Shown piece after piece: positions 2,893 to 14,515 of a stretch of DNA of 14,515 nucleotides; position 1 is the first letter of the stretch; each line of letters opens with the position of its first letter. The notes below the pieces were generated by a model. It was given only the letters and a program-made list of their open reading frames with translations. It was not told where the DNA came from and did not search any database. The stretch is taken from IMG/VR virus record IMGVR_UViG_2541047895_000006; one strand, 5' to 3'. This DNA is from a virus (Duplodnaviria; Heunggongvirae; Uroviricota; Caudoviricetes). Made by a program: the position numbers and the translations under genes.

Positions 2893-3134
2893 TTATCATC
2901 TCCATAAAACAAAACCCGCCGTAGCGAGTTCAGATAAAAGAAATCCTCGTCAGTGCGAGGATGCTGTTCATTGCTGCTATACACTTTTTTGCTCTCAACG
3001 TAAGCGGTAGCTCATTCTGTTGGGTTGGTGCAGTTGCTTTTAGGAAATGCTATTTACCCCTTAAACGTCGGCTGAAAGAGCTAAAATCCATGCAAAAAAT
3101 TTACGCAATTTTGTGTATTATTGTGCAGTAAGTA

Positions 3135-3563
3135 ATGAGCTATTTTCTGCGCAAAAAATGGATGGTAAATTTGTCCGGGGCAGGAAAAATTTTATGGGCG
3201 CTAAACATGAAAAAAGATTCGTATCCTTATTTGATTTGCATGACAGTTTCAGGCCTGATCTTTATTTTCCTTTTCTTCTGGTGGCGGGCAGATATTTACA
3301 GGGTCACGTTTCTTAATCAGAGTATATCCCACTATTACATTCTGTTTAGCATGGGAATAGCTTTTCTGTTATCTCTGTTTTGGGTTAAGAAGGGGATAGT
3401 AAAACAAAGCGGCTGGAAGAGTCTGTCAGCATACCTTAAGGTTTATGCAGGGATGTGCATATTTGCTGGATTTTTTCTGATTATACCCCTTACAACACTA
3501 ACTTATTTTTTTGCCTGGAGAGACATCGTCTTATGTTGCACCGTATCGGTATACTTCCGGTAG
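3135..3563 (+). CDS. Hypothetical small membrane protein (about 119-142 aa, about 3 predicted TM helices); start uncertain (ATG 3135 or ATG 3206)
   Basis: Longest ORF in the AT-rich insert, with hydrophobic stretches YLICMTVSGLIFIFLFFWW, YYILFSMGIAFLLSLFWV and CIFAGFFLIIPLTTLTYFFAW. No convincing Shine-Dalgarno at either start; AT-rich DNA readily produces spurious hydrophobic ORFs, hence moderate-to-low confidence. Confidence 0.4.
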   Translation: MSYFLRKKWMVNLSGAGKILWALNMKKDSYPYLICMTVSGLIFIFLFFWWRADIYRVTFLNQSISHYYILFSMGIAFLLSLFWVKKGIVKQSGWKSLSAYLKVYAGMCIFAGFFLIIPLTTLTYFFAWRDIVLCCTVSVYFR

Positions 3564-3588
3564 TTCAAAAAGTTGTTCTGGAGCTGAG

Positions 3589-3738
3589 GTGGATGACCCC
3601 GATCTACATGAGAATATTCGCATTTGCTATCCGTATGGCAATTATGAGTACGATAATATTATCTATGTTGAAAAGAAAATTAATACATTAGGTGCGGTAG
3701 TAACATATGCACAGACCGCGCGTGATGATACTGAATGA
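3589..3738 (+). CDS. Hypothetical small ORF downstream of the membrane-protein ORF (49 aa from GTG 3589; alternative 32-aa hydrophobic peptide ATG 3593-3691 in another frame)
   Basis: GGAG at 3580-3583 sits 5 nt before GTG 3589 and 9 nt before ATG 3593. The 3593 frame encodes MTPIYMRIFAFAIRMAIMSTIILSMLKRKLIH. The frame cannot be resolved by eye. Confidence 0.2.
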   Translation: MDDPDLHENIRICYPYGNYEYDNIIYVEKKINTLGAVVTYAQTARDDTE

Positions 3739-3772
3739 GATAGTATATAGCGGGCAAGTTTTAGTTAATTTA

Positions 3773-3796
3773 TCGAGGTAATATAATTTACCTCGA
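3773..3796. terminator. Perfect 9-bp stem-loop downstream of the plus-strand cargo ORFs (possible terminator)
   Basis: TCGAGGTAA (3773-3781), loop TATAAT, TTACCTCGA (3788-3796). Followed on plus by ctcgtttatt, a weak U-run. Confidence 0.35.
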
Positions 3797-3948
3797 CTCG
3801 TTTATTCTGGTATTAATATTTCGCTTTACGATCGATTTTTATCTGATGATATCATGCGGTTTTCATATACTGACTTACTGTCTTTTCTCCGTTAGCGATT
3901 TTCTCCTGCTCAGCGATGATTTTATCTTTGGCTTCTAGTTAATTTCGC

Positions 3949-5344
<1,396 letters not shown>

Positions 5345-5413
5345 AGCACCTGTGTTGTTCTGAGGTGAGCATATCACCTCTGTTCAGGTGGCCAAATTCA
5401 GTGTGCCACTACA

Positions 5414-8138: not shown

Positions 8139-8271
8139 TTTTTGGGACTCCTGGCTGATTAAGTATGTCGATAAGGCGTTTCCATCCGTCACGTAATTTA
8201 CGGGTGATTCGTTCAAGTAAAGATTCGGAAGGGCAGCCAGCAACAGGCCACCCTGCAATGGCATATTGCAT
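8107..8271 (-). CDS. cIII: Lambda CIII (FtsH/HflB inhibitor), 54 aa
   Basis: Translated by hand from the minus strand: [54 protein letters not shown]. Below the track cutoff. Confidence 0.85.
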   Translation of the reverse strand: MQYAIAGWPVAGCPSESLLERITRKLRDGWKRLIDILNQPGVPKNGSNNYGYPD

Positions 8272-8343
8272 GGTGTGCTCCTTATTTATACATAACGAAA
8301 AACGCCTCGAGTGAAGCGTAATTGGTATGCGGTAACGCCGCGC

Positions 8344-8881: not shown

Positions 8882-9779
<898 letters not shown>

Positions 9780-9936
9780 CTGGATTCTCTTGTCAGTTAG
9801 CTTTGGTGGTGTGTGTGAGTCGTAGTCCTGAACGAAAACACCCCCGATTGGCTCATTTGCAGCTAATCCGGATTCGCACTTCCGGCCAATGCTTCGTTTC
9901 GTATCACACACCCCAAAGCCTTCTGCTTTGAATGCT

Positions 9937-9967
9937 GCCCTTCTTCAGGGCTTAATTTTTAAGAGCA
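9937..9967 (-). promoter_or_regulatory. nutL: nutL (boxB hairpin 9937-9951; boxA about 9953-9967)
   Basis: Minus strand reads TGCTCTTAAAAATTAA (boxA) followed by GCCCTGAAGAAGGGC (boxB stem-loop), between the pL promoter and N. Confidence 0.8.
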
Positions 9968-10006
9968 TCACCTTCATGGTGGTTAGTGCGTCCTGCTGAT
10001 GGCTAA

Positions 10007-10035
10007 ATAGTACGATTTGTACTTTATTGAGTCAA
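10007..10035 (-). promoter_or_regulatory. pL: pL-equivalent leftward early promoter (TTGACT-17-TACTAT)
   Basis: On the minus strand, -35 TTGACT (plus 10030-10035) and -10 TACTAT (plus 10007-10012) with a 17-nt spacer, about 40-70 nt upstream of nutL. Confidence 0.6.
10009..10023. promoter_or_regulatory. Candidate OL operator: palindrome AGTAC-N5-GTACT overlapping the pL -10
   Basis: AGTACGATTTGTACT is a perfect dyad; a related AGTAC-N5-GTATT lies over the pR -10 region (10889-10903). Sequence differs from the lambda OL/OR operators. Confidence 0.5.
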
Positions 10036-10100
10036 TACAAAATGTTCTAAATATAATTGGTTTTTTATAACGCTTTGTATTTAGTGGGTTTATATTTTGG

Positions 10101-10130
10101 AAAAAGAAAACCCGACACTAAGGTCGGGTT
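10101..10130 (-). terminator. Intrinsic terminator downstream of cI (minus strand)
   Basis: AACCCGAC (10109-10116), loop ACTAAG, GTCGGGTT (10123-10130); AAAAAGAAAA at 10101-10110 on plus gives a U-rich tail after the hairpin on the minus strand. Lies 30 nt after the cI stop, where lambda has rexAB. Confidence 0.55.
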
Positions 10131-10160
10131 ATTGTTGTGTGCTTTAGAGTGGTGAGGCTG

Positions 10161-10856
10161 TTAACTAAATGTCTCTTCAGGCCACTGGCTGGCGATAACT
10201 TTCCCTACTACGGAACAGCTATCATTGCATGGAATCATTGGATATTGCGGGTTTAGTGGCTGTAGGAACACCTGACCGCTATCCCTGATCAGTTTCTTGA
10301 AGGTAAACTCGTCACCACCAAGTCTGGCTATGCAGAAATCACCTGGCTCAACAGCCTGCTCAGGGTCAACGAGAATTAACATCCCGTCAGGAAAGCTTGG
10401 CTTGGATCCTGTTGGCGCGGTCATGGAATTACCTTCAACTTCAAGCCAGAACGCACAATCACTGGCTTTTTTGGTTGTGCTGACCCATCTCTCCGCATCA
10501 CCTTTGGTAAAGGTTCTAAGCTCAGGCGAGAACATCCCGGCCTGAACATGAGAAAAAACAGGGTACTCATATTGTTTTTTAACGGGGGCAGATGAGTATT
10601 CGCCAACAGGTGAAAATGTACCGTCGTGGTTGAATGAGACGTTATCAATACCAAGGTATTTAAACACCACACCAATCTCGTCAAGAGATGGATGACGAGA
10701 TCCGCGCAACCAGTGACCAATTCCACCCTGCGTCATACCAAGCTCTTCAGCTAACTTCTCTTGAGTTATGCCGAGCTCTTTCATTCTGGATCTAGCCAGT
10801 TCATACCATTTCATTTTCATACCCTTATTATTACGCTCTGTACTAAAACCATCCAT
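10161..10856 (-). CDS. cI: CI-type prophage repressor (HTH N-terminal domain plus LexA/S24-like autocleavage C-terminal domain), about 225-231 aa; start uncertain (ATG 10856, 10820 or 10814)
   Basis: C-terminus ...[51 protein letters not shown] matches lambda CI as recalled; N-terminal domain ([37 protein letters not shown]) is an HTH not matching lambda, 434 or other repressors I can recall. Confidence 0.9.
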
Positions 10857-10876
10857 GCACAAGATGTATTTTTTGT

Positions 10877-10905
10877 TTGCATTCTAAAAGTACATATCGT
10901 ATTAT
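10877..10905 (+). promoter_or_regulatory. pR: pR-equivalent rightward early promoter (TTGCAT-17-TATTAT)
   Basis: -35 TTGCAT (10877-10882), 17-nt spacer, -10 TATTAT (10900-10905), about 27 nt upstream of the cro start. A minus-strand TAGAAT (plus 10881-10886) is a candidate pRM -10. Confidence 0.55.
10889..10903. promoter_or_regulatory. Candidate OR operator (AGTAC-N5-GTATT) overlapping the pR -10
   Basis: Shares the AGTAC-N5-GTA pattern with the OL palindrome at 10009-10023. Confidence 0.4.
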
Positions 10906-10931
10906 TGTTTCATGGTTACTATGGAGGGCAT

Positions 10932-11147
10932 ATGAGCAACCTACGAAAATATCGAGAGTCACTGAATATCTCTCAAACAACACTTGCTAAGGCAGTTGGA
11001 TGCACACAGGGAGCTATCGGACATTGGGAATCTGGTCGTCGCTTCCCAGACCTTAAAACATGCCGTGCTCTTGTTGAGTGCCTAAACAAGTTAGGCGCAA
11101 AAGTCAGTCTTGATGACGTGTTCCCGCCGGAACACAAAGCCGCTTAA
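10932..11147 (+). CDS. cro: Cro-type repressor (XRE-family HTH), 71 aa; not lambda Cro
   Basis: ATG at 10932 with GGAGGG 6 nt upstream; MSNLRKYRESLNISQTTLAKAVGCTQGAIGHWESGRRFPDLKTCRALVECLNKLGAKVSLDDVFPPEHKAA; divergent from cI. Confidence 0.85.
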   Translation: MSNLRKYRESLNISQTTLAKAVGCTQGAIGHWESGRRFPDLKTCRALVECLNKLGAKVSLDDVFPPEHKAA

Positions 11148-11155
11148 GACATTCC

Positions 11156-11187
11156 CGCTCTTACACATCCCAGCCCTGAAAAAGGGC
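11156..11187 (+). promoter_or_regulatory. nutR: nutR (boxA CGCTCTTACACAT 11156-11168; boxB GCCCTGAAAAAGGGC 11173-11187), followed by the tR1 region
   Basis: Canonical lambda boxA and boxB sequences read directly; downstream sequence up to cII matches the lambda tR1/cII leader as recalled. Confidence 0.85.
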
Positions 11188-11266
11188 ATCAAATTAAACC
11201 ACACCTATGGTGTATGCATTTATTTGCATACATTCAATCAATTGTTATCTAAGGAAATACTTACAT

Positions 11267-11560
11267 ATGGTTCGTGCAAACAAACGCAACGAGGCTCTAC
11301 GAATCGAGAGTGCGTTGCTTAACAAAATCGCAATGCTTGGAACTGAGAAGACAGCGGAAGCTGTGGGAGTTGATAAGTCGCAGATCAGCAGGTGGAAGAG
11401 AGACTGGATTCCAAAGTTCTCAATGCTGCTTGCTGTTCTTGAATGGGGGGGCGTTGACGACGACATGGCTCGATTGGCGCGACAAGTTGCTGCGATTCTC
11501 ACCAATAAAAAACGCCCGGCGGCAACCGAGCGTTCTGAACAAATCCAGATGGAGTTCTGA
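11267..11560 (+). CDS. cII: Lambda CII transcriptional activator, 97 aa
   Basis: MVRANKRNEALRIESALLNKIAMLGTEKTAEAVGVDKSQISRWKRDWIPKFSMLLAVLEWGGVDDDMARLARQVAAILTNKKRPAATERSEQIQMEF. Confidence 0.95.
   Translation: MVRANKRNEALRIESALLNKIAMLGTEKTAEAVGVDKSQISRWKRDWIPKFSMLLAVLEWGGVDDDMARLARQVAAILTNKKRPAATERSEQIQMEF
11276..11289 (-). promoter_or_regulatory. pRE: pRE -35 region with CII binding repeats TTGC-N6-TTGC
   Basis: Minus strand reads TTGCGTTTGTTTGC overlapping the 5' end of cII, the known CII recognition motif at lambda pRE. Confidence 0.65.
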
Positions 11561-11582
11561 GGTCATTACTGGATCTATCAAC
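11506..11582 (-). ncRNA. oop: Probable oop antisense RNA (positional inference from lambda)
   Basis: cII-O intergenic region and cII 3' end resemble lambda; GC-rich hairpin at 11511-11520 is followed by a U-run on the minus strand, as for the oop terminator. Boundaries projected from lambda coordinates, not independently verified. Confidence 0.4.
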
Positions 11583-11592
11583 AGGAGTCATT

Positions 11593-12492
11593 ATGACAAA
11601 TACAGCAAAAATACTCAACTTCGGCAGAGGTAACTTTGCCGGACAGGAGCGTAATGTGGCAGATCTCGATGATGGTTACGCCAGACTATCAAATATGCTG
11701 CTTGAGGCTTATTCAGGCGCAGATCTGACCAAGCGACAGTTTAAAGTGCTGCTTGCCATTCTGCGTAAAACCTATGGGTGGAATAAACCAATGGACAGAA
11801 TCACCGATTCTCAACTTAGCGAGATTACAAAGTTACCCGTCAAACGGTGCAATGAAGCCAAGTTAGAACTCGTCAGAATGAATATTATCAAGCAGCAAGG
11901 CGGCATGTTTGGACCAAATAAAAACATCTCAGAATGGTGTATCCCTCAAAACGAGGGAAAATCCCCTAAAACGAGGGATAAAACATCCCTCAAATTGGGG
12001 GATTGCTATCCCTCAAAACAGGGGGACACAAAAGACACTATTACAAAAGAAAAAAGAAAAGATTATTCGTCCGAGAATTCTGGCGAATCCTCTGACCAGC
12101 CAGAAAACGATCTTTCTGTGGTTAAACCGGATGCTGCAATTCAGAGCGGCAGCAGGTGGGGGACAGCAGAAGACCTGACCGCCGCAGAGTGGATGTTTGA
12201 CATGGTGAAGACTATCGCGCCATCAGCCAGAAAACCGAATTTTGCAGGGTGGGCTAACGATATCCGCCTGATGCGTGAACGTGACGGACGTAACCACCGC
12301 GACATGTGCGTGCTGTTCCGCTGGGCATGCCTGGACAACTTCTGGTCCGGTAACGTGCTGAGCCCGGCCAAACTCCGCGACAAGTGGACCCAGCTCGAAA
12401 TCAACCGTAACAAGCAACAGGCAGTAGTGACAGCCAGCAAACCAAAACTCGACTTGACAAACACAGACTGGATTTACGGGGTGGATCTATGA
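11593..12492 (+). CDS. O: Lambda O replication initiator, 299 aa
   Basis: MTNTAKILNFGRGNFAGQERNVADLDDGYARLSNMLLEAYSGADLTKRQFKVLLAILRKTYGWNKPMDR... matches lambda O. Confidence 0.97.
   Translation: MTNTAKILNFGRGNFAGQERNVADLDDGYARLSNMLLEAYSGADLTKRQFKVLLAILRKTYGWNKPMDRITDSQLSEITKLPVKRCNEAKLELVRMNIIKQQGGMFGPNKNISEWCIPQNEGKSPKTRDKTSLKLGDCYPSKQGDTKDTITKEKRKDYSSENSGESSDQPENDLSVVKPDAAIQSGSRWGTAEDLTAAEWMFDMVKTIAPSARKPNFAGWANDIRLMRERDGRNHRDMCVLFRWACLDNFWSGNVLSPAKLRDKWTQLEINRNKQQAVVTASKPKLDLTNTDWIYGVDL
11941..12065. repeat. ori: ori-lambda: four iterons (O-protein binding sites) plus adjacent AT-rich unwinding region, inside the O gene
   Basis: Four tandem copies of the ATCCCTCAAAACGAGGGA type repeat (11941-12028), followed by an A/T-rich stretch aaagacactattacaaaagaaaaaagaaaagattatt. 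Confidence 0.88.
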
Positions 12493-13190
12493 AAAACATC
12501 GCCGCACAGATGGTTAACTTTGACCGTGAGCAGATGCGTCGGATCGCCAACAACATGCCGGAACAGTACGACGAAAAGCCGCAGGTACAGCAGGTAGCGC
12601 AGATCATCAACGGTGTGTTCAGCCAGTTACTGGCAACTTTCCCGGCGAGCCTGGCTAACCGTGACCAGAACGAACTGAACGAAATCCGCCGCCAGTGGGT
12701 TCTGGCTTTCCGGGAAAACGGGATCACCACGATGGAACAGGTTAACGCAGGAATGCGCGTAGCCCGTCGGCAGAATCGACCATTCCTGCCATCACCCGGG
12801 CAGTTTGTTGCCTGGTGTCGTGAAGAAGCATCTGTTATTGCCGGACTGCCAAACGCCAGCGAGCTGGTTGATATGGTTTACGAGTATTGCCGGAAGCGTG
12901 GCCTGTATCCAGATGCAGAGTCTTATCCGTGGAAATCAAACGCGCACTACTGGCTGGTTACCAACCTGTACCAGAACATGCGGGCCAATGCGCTGACTGA
13001 CGCGGAATTACGGCGTAAGGCTGCCGATGAGCTGACCTGTATGACAGCGCGAATTAACTGTGGTGAGACTATACCTGAACCAGTAAAACAACTTCCTGTC
13101 ATGGGCGGCAGACCTCTAAATCGAGCACAGGCTCTGGCGAAGATCGCAGAAATTAAAGCTAAGTTCGGACTGAAAGGAGCAAGTGTATGA
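12489..13190 (+). CDS. P: Lambda P (DnaB helicase loader), 233 aa
   Basis: MKNIAAQMVNFDREQMRRIANNMPEQYDEKPQVQQVAQIINGVFSQLLATFPASLANRDQNELNEIRRQW... matches lambda P; start overlaps the O stop. Confidence 0.97.
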   Translation: MKNIAAQMVNFDREQMRRIANNMPEQYDEKPQVQQVAQIINGVFSQLLATFPASLANRDQNELNEIRRQWVLAFRENGITTMEQVNAGMRVARRQNRPFLPSPGQFVAWCREEASVIAGLPNASELVDMVYEYCRKRGLYPDAESYPWKSNAHYWLVTNLYQNMRANALTDAELRRKAADELTCMTARINCGETIPEPVKQLPVMGGRPLNRAQALAKIAEIKAKFGLKGASV

Positions 13191-13477
13191 CGGGCAAAGA
13201 GGCAATTATTCATTACCTCGGAACGCATAAGAGCTTCTGTGCACAGGACGTTTCCGCGCTAACAGGCGCAACAGTAACCAGCATAAATCAGGCCGCGGCT
13301 AAAATGGCACGGGCAGGTCTTCTGGTTATCGAAGGTAAGGTCTGGCGAACGGTGTATTACCGGTTCGCTACCAGAGAAGAACGGGAAGGAAAGGTGAGCA
13401 CGAACCTGATTTTTAAGGAGTGTCGCCAGAGTGCCGCGATGAAACGGGTATTGGCGGTATATGGAGTTAAAAGATGA
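13187..13477 (+). CDS. ren: Lambda Ren (Rex exclusion resistance), 96 aa
   Basis: MTGKEAIIHYLGTHKSFCAQDVSALTGATVTSINQAAAKMARAGLLVIEGKVWRTVYYRFATREEREGKVSTNLIFKECRQSAAMKRVLAVYGVKR. Confidence 0.9.
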   Translation: MTGKEAIIHYLGTHKSFCAQDVSALTGATVTSINQAAAKMARAGLLVIEGKVWRTVYYRFATREEREGKVSTNLIFKECRQSAAMKRVLAVYGVKR

Positions 13478-13502
13478 CCATCTACATCACTGAGCTAATA
13501 AC

Positions 13503-13533
13503 AGGCCTGCTGGTAATCGCAGGCCTTTTTATT
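13503..13533 (+). terminator. tR2-like intrinsic terminator between ren and ninB
   Basis: AGGCCTGC (13503-13510), loop TGGTAATC, GCAGGCCT (13519-13526), followed by TTTTTATTT. Confidence 0.65.
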
Positions 13534-13550
13534 TGGGGGAGAGGGAAGTC

Positions 13551-13991
13551 ATGAAAAAACTAACCTTTGAAATTCGATCTCCAGCACATCAGCAAAACGC
13601 TATTCACGCGGTACAGCAAATTCTTCCAGACCCAACCAAACCAATCGTAGTAACCATTCAGGAACGCAACCGCAGCTTAGACCAGAATCGAAAGCTTTGG
13701 GCTTGCCTTGGTGACGTCTCTCGTCAGGTTGAATGGCATGGTCGCTGGCTGGATGCAGAAAGCTGGAAGTGCGTTTTTACAGCAGCATTAAAGCAGCAGG
13801 ACGTTGTTCCTAACCTTGCCGGGAATGGCTTTGTGGTAATAGGCCAGTCAACCAGCAGGATGCGTGTAAGCGAATTTGCGGAGCTATTAGAGCTTATACA
13901 GGCATTCGGTACAGAGCGTGGCGTTAAGTGGTCAGACGAAGCGCGACTGGCTCTCGAATGGAAAGCGCGATGGGGAGATCGGGCTGCATGA
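13551..13991 (+). CDS. ninB: NinB (Orf family recombination mediator), 146 aa
   Basis: ATG at 13551 after GGGAGAGGGAAG; MKKLTFEIRSPAHQQNAIHAVQQILPDPTKPIVVTIQERNRSLDQNRKLWACLGDVSRQVEWHGRWLDAESWKC... Confidence 0.9.
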   Translation: MKKLTFEIRSPAHQQNAIHAVQQILPDPTKPIVVTIQERNRSLDQNRKLWACLGDVSRQVEWHGRWLDAESWKCVFTAALKQQDVVPNLAGNGFVVIGQSTSRMRVSEFAELLELIQAFGTERGVKWSDEARLALEWKARWGDRAA

Positions 13992-14515
13992 CTATCAAAT
14001 CAAATACGCCATCACACGACAAGGACTGCTGGCAAACGCCGCTCTGGCTTTTTGATGCACTGGATATTGAGTTTGGATTCTGGCTGGATTCGGCAGCGAG
14101 CGACAAAAATGCTCTGTGCGCTCACTGGCTAACTGAGGCTGACGACGCGCTAAATTCTGAGTGGATAAGCCACGGTGCAATCTGGAATAACCCACCGTAC
14201 AGCAATATCAGGCCGTGGGTGGAAAAAGCCGCTGAGCAGTGCATACAACAACGACAGACGGTAGTGATGCTTGTGCCAGAGGATATGTCTGTCGGATGGT
14301 TCAGCAAGGCTCTGGAGAGTGTCGACGAAGTTCGCATTATCACTGATGGACGGATTAATTTTATCGAACCATCGACAGGGCTGGAGAAGAAGGGAAACAG
14401 CAAAGGCTCCATGCTGCTGATTTGGCGACCGTTCATCAGTCCTCGACGGATGTTTACTACCGTATCCAAAGCGGCATTGATGGCGATCGGGCAGGGCGTC
14501 AGGAGGGCGGCATGA
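13988..14515 (+). CDS. Phage-type DNA N6-adenine methyltransferase (Dam-like, NPPY motif), 175 aa, in the ninC position
   Basis: ATG at 13988 overlaps the ninB stop (ATGA). Translation MTIKSNTPSHDKDCWQTPLWLFDALDIEFGFWLDSAASDKNALCAHWLTEADD...AIWNNPPYSNIRPW... carries the (D/N)PPY catalytic motif of amino-methyltransferases. Stop at 14513-14515, the window end. Confidence 0.8.
   Translation: MTIKSNTPSHDKDCWQTPLWLFDALDIEFGFWLDSAASDKNALCAHWLTEADDALNSEWISHGAIWNNPPYSNIRPWVEKAAEQCIQQRQTVVMLVPEDMSVGWFSKALESVDEVRIITDGRINFIEPSTGLEKKGNSKGSMLLIWRPFISPRRMFTTVSKAALMAIGQGVRRAA

Follow-up and report, generated by a model that had tools for sequence, protein, structure and literature searches.

A putative CI/Cro switch of the VT2-Sakai immunity type in an otherwise lambda-like Escherichia coli prophage

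Gene order and junctions with lambda

The window, by which we mean the whole stretch of 14,515 nucleotides analyzed here, represents a lambda-like prophage adjoining ybhC, the att-lambda site, and matches E. coli 2015C-4136CT1 (NZ_CP027550) at 100% identity. Its genes follow in the order int, xis, an IS3-family insertion, exo, bet, gam, kil, cIII, N, cI, cro, cII, O, P, ren and ninB, with N, cII and ren of the lambda type. The ORF found in the sieB slot gave no match in PADLOC or Pfam, and its sole PHROGs match was phrog_1244, a family of unknown function. A scan of the whole window at the Rfam gathering thresholds detected only the cIII thermoregulator and nothing in the immunity region.

The layout around the repressor is that of a lambdoid switch: cI (minus strand) and cro (plus strand) are divergently oriented, with putative operator sites between them (10829-10904) and in a second intergenic region beyond the end of cI (10008-10082). 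We mapped the junctions with lambda by blastn of the window against the lambda genome. Three homologous blocks were obtained, 9456-10001 (95.6% identity), 10167-10571 (93.8%), which covers the C-terminal two-thirds of cI, and 11154-13991 (97.0%), which runs to the end of ninB; no DNA homology to lambda was detected by blastn at 10002-10166 and 10572-11153. The four resulting junctions are situated at the start of PL, at the cI stop codon, in the cI linker and at nutR boxA, 7 nt past the cro stop codon. The divergent operator DNA begins right after position 10001, which aligns to a lambda position just downstream of OL1; we take this, from what is known of lambda, to be the start of PL. Mosaic junctions inside cI and between cro and nutR had been proposed in an earlier note on this DNA, and the breaks at 10571/10572 and 11153/11154 place them exactly there. 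The same note considered everything rightward to be lambda-like, which holds as far as 13991 and not past it. It also bounded the immunity module at 9937-10931; its elements do lie where stated, but this end falls one base short of cro, itself a member of the module.

Both antitermination sites flanking the module are of the lambda type. The nutL boxB hairpin (9937..9951, minus strand, GCCCTGAAGAAGGGC on that strand) is inside the 95.6% identical block, and at nutR (11156..11188, plus strand; boxA CGCTCTTA, boxB GCCCTGAAAAAGGGC) the lambda homology restarts. The two boxB sequences were also recovered as an inverted repeat in the repeat search.

Directly behind cI there is an intrinsic terminator of the cI (PRM/PRE) transcript (10109..10130, minus strand), which consists of an 8-bp GC-rich stem and a 6-nt loop followed by UUUUCUUUUU, begins 30 nt past the cI stop codon and has a folding energy of -12.1 kcal/mol (z=-2.86). 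The 78 bp between the cI stop codon and the nearest operator, OL3, contain this one terminator and no ORF of at least 40 aa, and the rexA/rexB segment of lambda (35825-37114) has no blastn match anywhere in the window. It was thus correctly noticed before that cI is followed directly by a terminator, that rexAB are missing and that a lambda-type ren is retained. With the rexAB slot empty no Rex exclusion is expected, and the OL-OR distance is about 0.88 kb instead of about 2.4 kb in lambda. Relatives of the cassette carry different genes in this slot: orf22 in VT2-Sakai, an NYN-domain protein in 2B8, a PDC-M24A/B-like pair in ev207 and Orf11 in phi458. The rexAB position is therefore a variable cargo slot, empty here and in Salmonella phage L.

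Repressor, Cro and putative operators

The cI gene (10161..10820, minus strand) encodes a repressor of 219 aa, with Pfam matches to HTH_3 (8e-11) and Peptidase_S24 (9e-29), if read from the ATG at 10820, which is probably its start codon. PGAP and GenBank call a longer ORF, in the case of PGAP 231 aa from an ATG at 10856; with that start the coding region would include OR3 and one base of OR2. According to the alignments, residues 1-83 form an HTH_3 domain of the kind present in phage L and VT2-Sakai, and from residue 84 onwards the protein consists of an S24 domain of the lambda type for autocleavage and oligomerisation, nearly identical to that of lambda CI with three substitutions past the junction. 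The Ala-Gly cleavage site (VQAGMF) and the Ser (GNSMT) and Lys (FKKL) motifs are all within the stretch identical to lambda CI, so that the protein has the composition of a lambdoid repressor, an N-terminal HTH joined to a C-terminal S24 domain with an Ala-Gly site and a Ser/Lys dyad. The N-terminal domains of the two repressors can be aligned over 26 HTH residues only (12/26 identical, E=1e-7). The mosaic nature of cI claimed earlier stands for the lambda-type C-terminal domain, but the N-terminal domain is not unrelated to that of lambda; it is a diverged HTH_3 homologue with a different recognition helix. Residues E34 and D38 in helix 2 of the lambda HTH constitute the positive-control patch of lambda CI. 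They align with two other acidic residues, E21 and E25, of the window CI.

The cro gene (10932..11147, plus strand) encodes 71 aa with a match to HTH_3 (Pfam 1.4e-12). No alignment between this protein and lambda Cro was obtained, which agrees with its previous description as an XRE-type protein unrelated to lambda Cro. With the N-terminal domain of the CI encoded beside it, on the other hand, it shares 35% identity (E=5e-13), and the recognition helices of the two are alike (CTQGAIGHW in Cro, MTQGGIGHW in CI).

AGTAC-N5-GTA(C/T)T dyads had been suggested as operators overlapping the -10 elements of both early promoters. A search for further sites of this kind with AGTACNNNNNGTAYT, allowing at most one mismatch, gave 7 strand-matches at 4 sites, all located in two intergenic regions; 0.59 matches are expected by chance, and 7 were reached in none of 200 shuffled sequences. 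Altogether six putative operators of 17 bp can be recognized, with the consensus TAGTACAAATTGTACTA and with A5, C6, G12 and T13 invariant across the twelve half-sites. The two dyads over the early -10 elements were confirmed as OL1 and OR1, the best matches to the consensus, but they were only two of the six sites. On the left side OL1 (10008..10024, TAGTACGATTTGTACTT) contains the exact motif, has the highest PWM score (20.4) and overlaps the PL -10, OL2 (10033..10049, CAATACAAAATGTTCTA) overlaps the PL -35 with its centre 25 bp from that of OL1, and OL3 (10066..10082, TATAACGCTTTGTATTT; PWM 15.0) follows with its centre 33 bp from OL2. On the right side OR3 (10829..10845, TATTACGCTCTGTACTA) overlaps the putative PRM -10, OR2 (10855..10871, ATGCACAAGATGTATTT) is the weakest site (PWM 12.4) and abuts the putative PRM -35, and OR1 (10888..10904, AAGTACATATCGTATTA) overlaps the PR -10. 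An unbiased repeat search paired OL1 with OR1, OL2 with OL3, OL1 with OL2 and OL1 with OR3.

The predicted PL promoter (10007..10035, minus strand) was found in a promoter scan with 9 of 12 matches and consists of TTGACT (10035-10030), a 17-nt spacer and TACTAT (10012-10007). The PR promoter (10877..10905, plus strand) is read here as TTGCAT, a 17-nt spacer and TATTAT (10900-10905), a register set by eye; the scan gave the alternative register TTTGCA-18-TATTAT at 10876-10905. For PRM, the likely -10 element is AATAAT/TAATAA within OR3 and the likely -35 element a weak TGGATG abutting OR2, from which the cI mRNA would start at about 10820 and be leaderless or nearly so.

In relation to the genes the operators occupy nearly the same positions as in lambda: the centre of OR1 is 36 bp from the cro ATG (35 in lambda), and those of OR2 and OR3 are 43 and 17 bp from the cI ATG at 10820 (42 and 19 in lambda). 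The spacing between sites differs. The centres of OR1 and OR2 and those of OL2 and OL3 are both 33 bp apart, compared with 24 and 20 bp in lambda, and the OL1-OL2 and OR2-OR3 distances are 25 and 26 bp. The stretch from OR2 to the PR -35 is longer than in lambda by about 9 bp, and this brings the OR1-OR2 spacing to 33 instead of 24 bp. A candidate OR2 at the lambda-like distance of 24 bp from OR1 (10864-10880) was rejected, as it does not contain the invariant C6 and is not among the top 25 PWM matches.

The operators might be mis-assigned, with only OL1 and OR1 being real or OR2 situated elsewhere, and with a switch logic unlike that of the six-site model. The PWM was scored on its own training sites, the score of OR2 is close to the mean maximum of shuffled sequences (11.6), and the OR1-OR2 spacing varies by subtype, 33 bp here and 32 bp in VT2-Sakai. 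We consider this improbable, however, because every relative keeps the half-sites of OR2 (TGCAC...GTAT), whereas the bases in its centre and flanks differ, a corresponding site (ACACACATATTGTATTA) is located 26 bp from OR3 in phage L, and the distance between OR2 and the cI ATG is similar to that of the activating site in lambda. Across six relatives the half-site columns are variable at 4 of 60 positions versus 46 of 140 in the remaining intergenic DNA (Fisher p=3.5e-5). When the PWM trained only on the six sites of the window was applied to the 2.2-kb immC record of phage L, the five top matches were three OR sites, spaced 26/34 bp between c2 and cro, and two OL sites.

Relatives and age of the cassette

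The cI-OR-cro DNA is 93-94% identical to that of VT2-Sakai, Stx1 phage AP005153, Stx2 phage II, 1717, YYZ-2008, Nil2, 2851 and the PA-series Stx2a phages, and for 10572-11147 the identity to the VT2-Sakai / Stx2-phage-II immunity type is 93.8-94.1%. The only CI of the VT2-Sakai type that we compared in full, that of AP005153, is identical in the HTH stretch, with three substitutions in the N-terminal domain that are all outside the HTH, and its C-terminal domain is also lambda-type; its Cro is identical at 70 of 71 residues. The six putative operators annotated in AP005153 are orthologues of those in the window, and all six operators of the VT2-Sakai type align, the differences being in central bases or at the outer edges. 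The operators listed for VT2-Sakai (PMC10742460, Table S1) are the same sequences as the AP005153 sites, OR1-3 and OL1-3 have been predicted in Sakai-type phages, with Fattah et al. 2000 cited for the Sakai OL3 (PMC4587872), and lambda CI was reported to be closest to the CI proteins of Eru2/Eru3, in Clade I with 61% overall identity, VT2-Sakai being the representative of Eru3 (PMC8951638). When the N-terminal domain of cI and cro are compared with known immunity types they thus match VT2-Sakai / Stx2-phage-II, and at the level of sequence the cassette is of this already sequenced and described type. The novelty implied by the earlier note does not hold, since the same cassette occurs in Stx phages and its putative operators had been annotated and published; that the type is known did not move the operators, which are at the positions first noted.

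Differences from the Stx phages are found around this core. In them cI and OL are separated by about 1.5 kb, which holds orf22/b63 among other ORFs, where the window has only the terminator, their OL region is just 82% identical, and their backbone is HK97/HK022-like in contrast to the lambda-like backbone of the window (N, cII, O, P, ren). More similar over the whole region from nutL through OL, terminator, cI and cro to nutR (9900-11200) are the phages Louie, Dewey, vB_EcoP-720R6 and vB_EcoP-683R2 (about 99%), whose backbones differ from that of the window, Louie for example having an early region of RecT/HNH/DnaC type, and phi458 (97.6%), in which a 1047-bp ORF is inserted between cI and OL. 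The record of Louie gives sewage-plant inflow as its source, and phi458 was described as a spontaneously induced prophage.

A more distant homologue, judged from sequence comparison, is the immC module of the Salmonella phage L, which has a P22-like backbone. Its Cro (MW013503) shares 70% identity (E=2e-39) and the recognition helix with that of the window. In an older record (X94331) this protein seemed unrelated past residue 23, the effect of a frameshift in that record. Overall the c2 repressor of phage L shares 46% identity with the window CI, and in the N-terminal domain 34 of 60 residues are the same, with the recognition helix KTQGAIGHW compared with MTQGGIGHW, and its C-terminal domain is only distantly related to that of lambda. 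The operator consensus and OR order are the same with a spacing of 26/34 bp, the PR -35, OR1 and -10 align with those of the window, both hexamers being conserved, OL has only two clear sites by PWM, and a terminator and OL come right after c2, with no cargo in between. Because of this homology the immunity type can best be viewed as a combination of an L-like module for DNA binding, with its operators, and a C-terminal domain of the lambda type. ST64T and SEN22 were grouped with the phage L immC. With lambda the window shares the divergent cI/cro, the tripartite OR and OL, the C-terminal domain of CI and the flanking nutL, N, nutR and cII, but the recognition helix is different, the lambda operators are of the TATCACCGC type and lambda Cro is from an unrelated sequence family. 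With the N-terminal domain, Cro and operators all differing, the region is not imm-lambda, and sequence comparison supports its earlier description as hetero-immune to lambda.

The cassette is common. The segment from the CI N-terminal domain through OR to cro was found in 773 of 5426 complete E. coli genomes, about one in seven, and the OL-terminator-cI junction with an empty slot in 184. A match in DH5alpha, at first considered to represent phi80 immunity, turned out to be a P22-like prophage (Erf/Ssb/DnaB-type) with the same cassette.

Two other explanations concern the history of the region. It could be the decayed, non-functional remnant of a cryptic prophage, given the IS3-family insertion and one frameshifted gene in the b region. 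This is very improbable, as cI, cro, N, cII, O, P and the six operators are intact and the same cassette is found in phages deposited as complete genomes. Purifying selection is indicated, moreover, by the C-terminal domain of CI, in which only three amino acids have changed although its DNA differs from lambda by about 7%. Least probable of all is a recent lambda x Stx-phage recombination in this strain, with a crossover inside cI giving a new hybrid immunity: the flanks are indeed 95.6-97.8% lambda-like and the CI N-terminal domain, OR and cro of Stx-phage type, but the Stx1-phage CI, which is of the VT2-Sakai type, already has a lambda-type C-terminal domain, any two of the alleles of this domain in the window, lambda and the Stx1 phage are separated by 6.8-8.5% at the DNA level, which exceeds the divergence of the lambda-type flanks, even divergence is seen instead of an identical C-terminal domain with a step in identity at 10571, the cassette including OL and terminator is present at 97.6 to about 99% in five phage genomes, and stretches spanning cI, terminator and OL (at least 80% covered) occur in 184-206 complete E. 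coli genomes on lambda-like and P22-like backbones. From the pairwise divergence of these alleles and the lambda-type C-terminal domain of the Stx1-phage CI it follows that the internal junction of cI is old and did not arise recently in this prophage.

A probable lambdoid switch with altered operator spacing

From all these results we consider, with a probability of roughly nine in ten, that an otherwise lambda-like prophage here carries a standard lambdoid CI/Cro switch whose immunity is of the VT2-Sakai type. In such a switch CI dimers would bind the six 17-bp operators through an HTH of the phage L/VT2-Sakai kind. Bound at OL1 and OL2 they would cover the -10 and -35 elements of PL and at OR1 the -10 of PR; OR2, whose centre lies 43 bp ahead of the cI ATG, would be placed for activation of PRM, and OR3, lying over PRM, would provide negative autoregulation. 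As the C-terminal domain is essentially that of lambda, it should allow CI to dimerise, dimers to interact cooperatively with one another, and OL and OR, about 0.88 kb apart, to be joined in a loop; autocleavage at the Ala-Gly site, stimulated by RecA, and with it RecA-dependent induction, are also expected. Cro, which has the same type of recognition helix, would bind the same operators and turn PRM off in lytic growth, and the cI transcript would end at the hairpin 30 nt past cI.

Since the OR1-OR2 and OL2-OL3 spacings are unlike those of lambda, pairwise cooperativity at OR1-OR2 of the lambda kind cannot be assumed. The 26/33-34 bp spacing in OR, conserved from phage L to the present cassette, hints that it is functional. 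If lambda-type cooperativity needs a roughly lambda-like spacing, the cooperating pair in OR could be OR2-OR3 and not OR1-OR2, a possibility that we regard as rather unlikely.

The prophage is hereby assigned to a common and already described immunity group, which as a discovery carries little weight. On account of the identical HTH stretch and the conserved half-sites it is predicted to be homoimmune with Stx phages of the VT2-Sakai type, and it should be heteroimmune with lambda, 434, 21 and HK022. For this very common type, which is carried by clinically important Stx2 phages, we found in the literature searched no direct measurement of how the cognate CI or Cro binds its operators; in the sole EMSA found, lambda CI bound VT2-Sakai sites weakly, in the micromolar range. 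A mildly interesting point is the combination of a lambda-type cooperativity domain with operators spaced 33/26 bp. If OR2 and OR3 do cooperate, the autoregulation of PRM and the threshold of induction would be unlike those of lambda, and this would bear on the induction of Stx phages, as VT2-Sakai has the same arrangement.

Genes at the rexAB and sieB positions

Relatives that share this immunity type have unrelated cargo between cI and OL, in the slot that corresponds to the rexAB position (L004 1067-1588, L006 1105-1962, L007 744-2050 and L008 1018-2064, each in the coordinates of its own comparison locus). For example, 2B8 has an NYN-domain protein there, and ev207 a gene pair with a match to PDC-M24A/B, a candidate system in PADLOC. 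In both the window and Salmonella phage L, which carries a distant homologue of the module, this slot is empty. A 164-aa ORF on the plus strand (8969-9463) occupies exactly the position of lambda's sieB slot, and around it homology to lambda ends at 8953 and restarts at 9456. The ORF matches phrog_1244, a family of unknown function, and possesses a CxxC...CxxC motif in its C-terminus; Pfam and PADLOC searches with it gave no match. This ORF may be a superinfection-exclusion or defence gene that has replaced sieB.

The immunity module in other hosts and records

In the P22-like Klebsiella phage phiKp_30, OL1-OL2, OR and cro are present (L009 2392-2888) with about 100 bp from OL1-OL2 to OR and cro and no cI gene between them, an arrangement suggesting that this immunity module has lost cI by deletion. 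The cassette was also found in a P22-like prophage of the Erf/Ssb/DnaB type (L010 4001-5160) in NZ_CP026085, a 4.83 Mb assembly labelled DH5alpha. Such a prophage is unexpected in DH5alpha, and the strain may be mislabelled or lysogenised. When phage L cro from the 1990s GenBank entry X94331 (L011 1678-1875) is compared with that of the modern genome MW013503 (L012 1801-2016), the older sequence appears to be frameshifted past residue 23.

Regions flanking the immunity module

The lambda-homologous b region is split between 4166 and 5414 by an IS3-family element annotated by PGAP (about 4167-5413, minus strand), with orfA/orfB and a programmed frameshift. A non-lambda segment (2963-3936) stands in place of the ea8.5/ea22 region; in it PGAP calls a frameshifted hypothetical gene, and a 142-aa ORF (3135-3563) is membrane-like in appearance. 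The Rfam scan of the window gave a single element, the cIII thermoregulator RNA Lambda_thermo (8226-8284, minus strand, 88.5 bits). On the right side lambda homology extends to 13991, and a phage N6-adenine methyltransferase gene (about 13988-14515, plus strand) takes the place of lambda ninC. Immediately beyond the right edge of the window in the source genome, this prophage encodes a KilAC-domain antirepressor in its nin region (L005 15805-16527), which could provide a second induction route, independent of CI cleavage.
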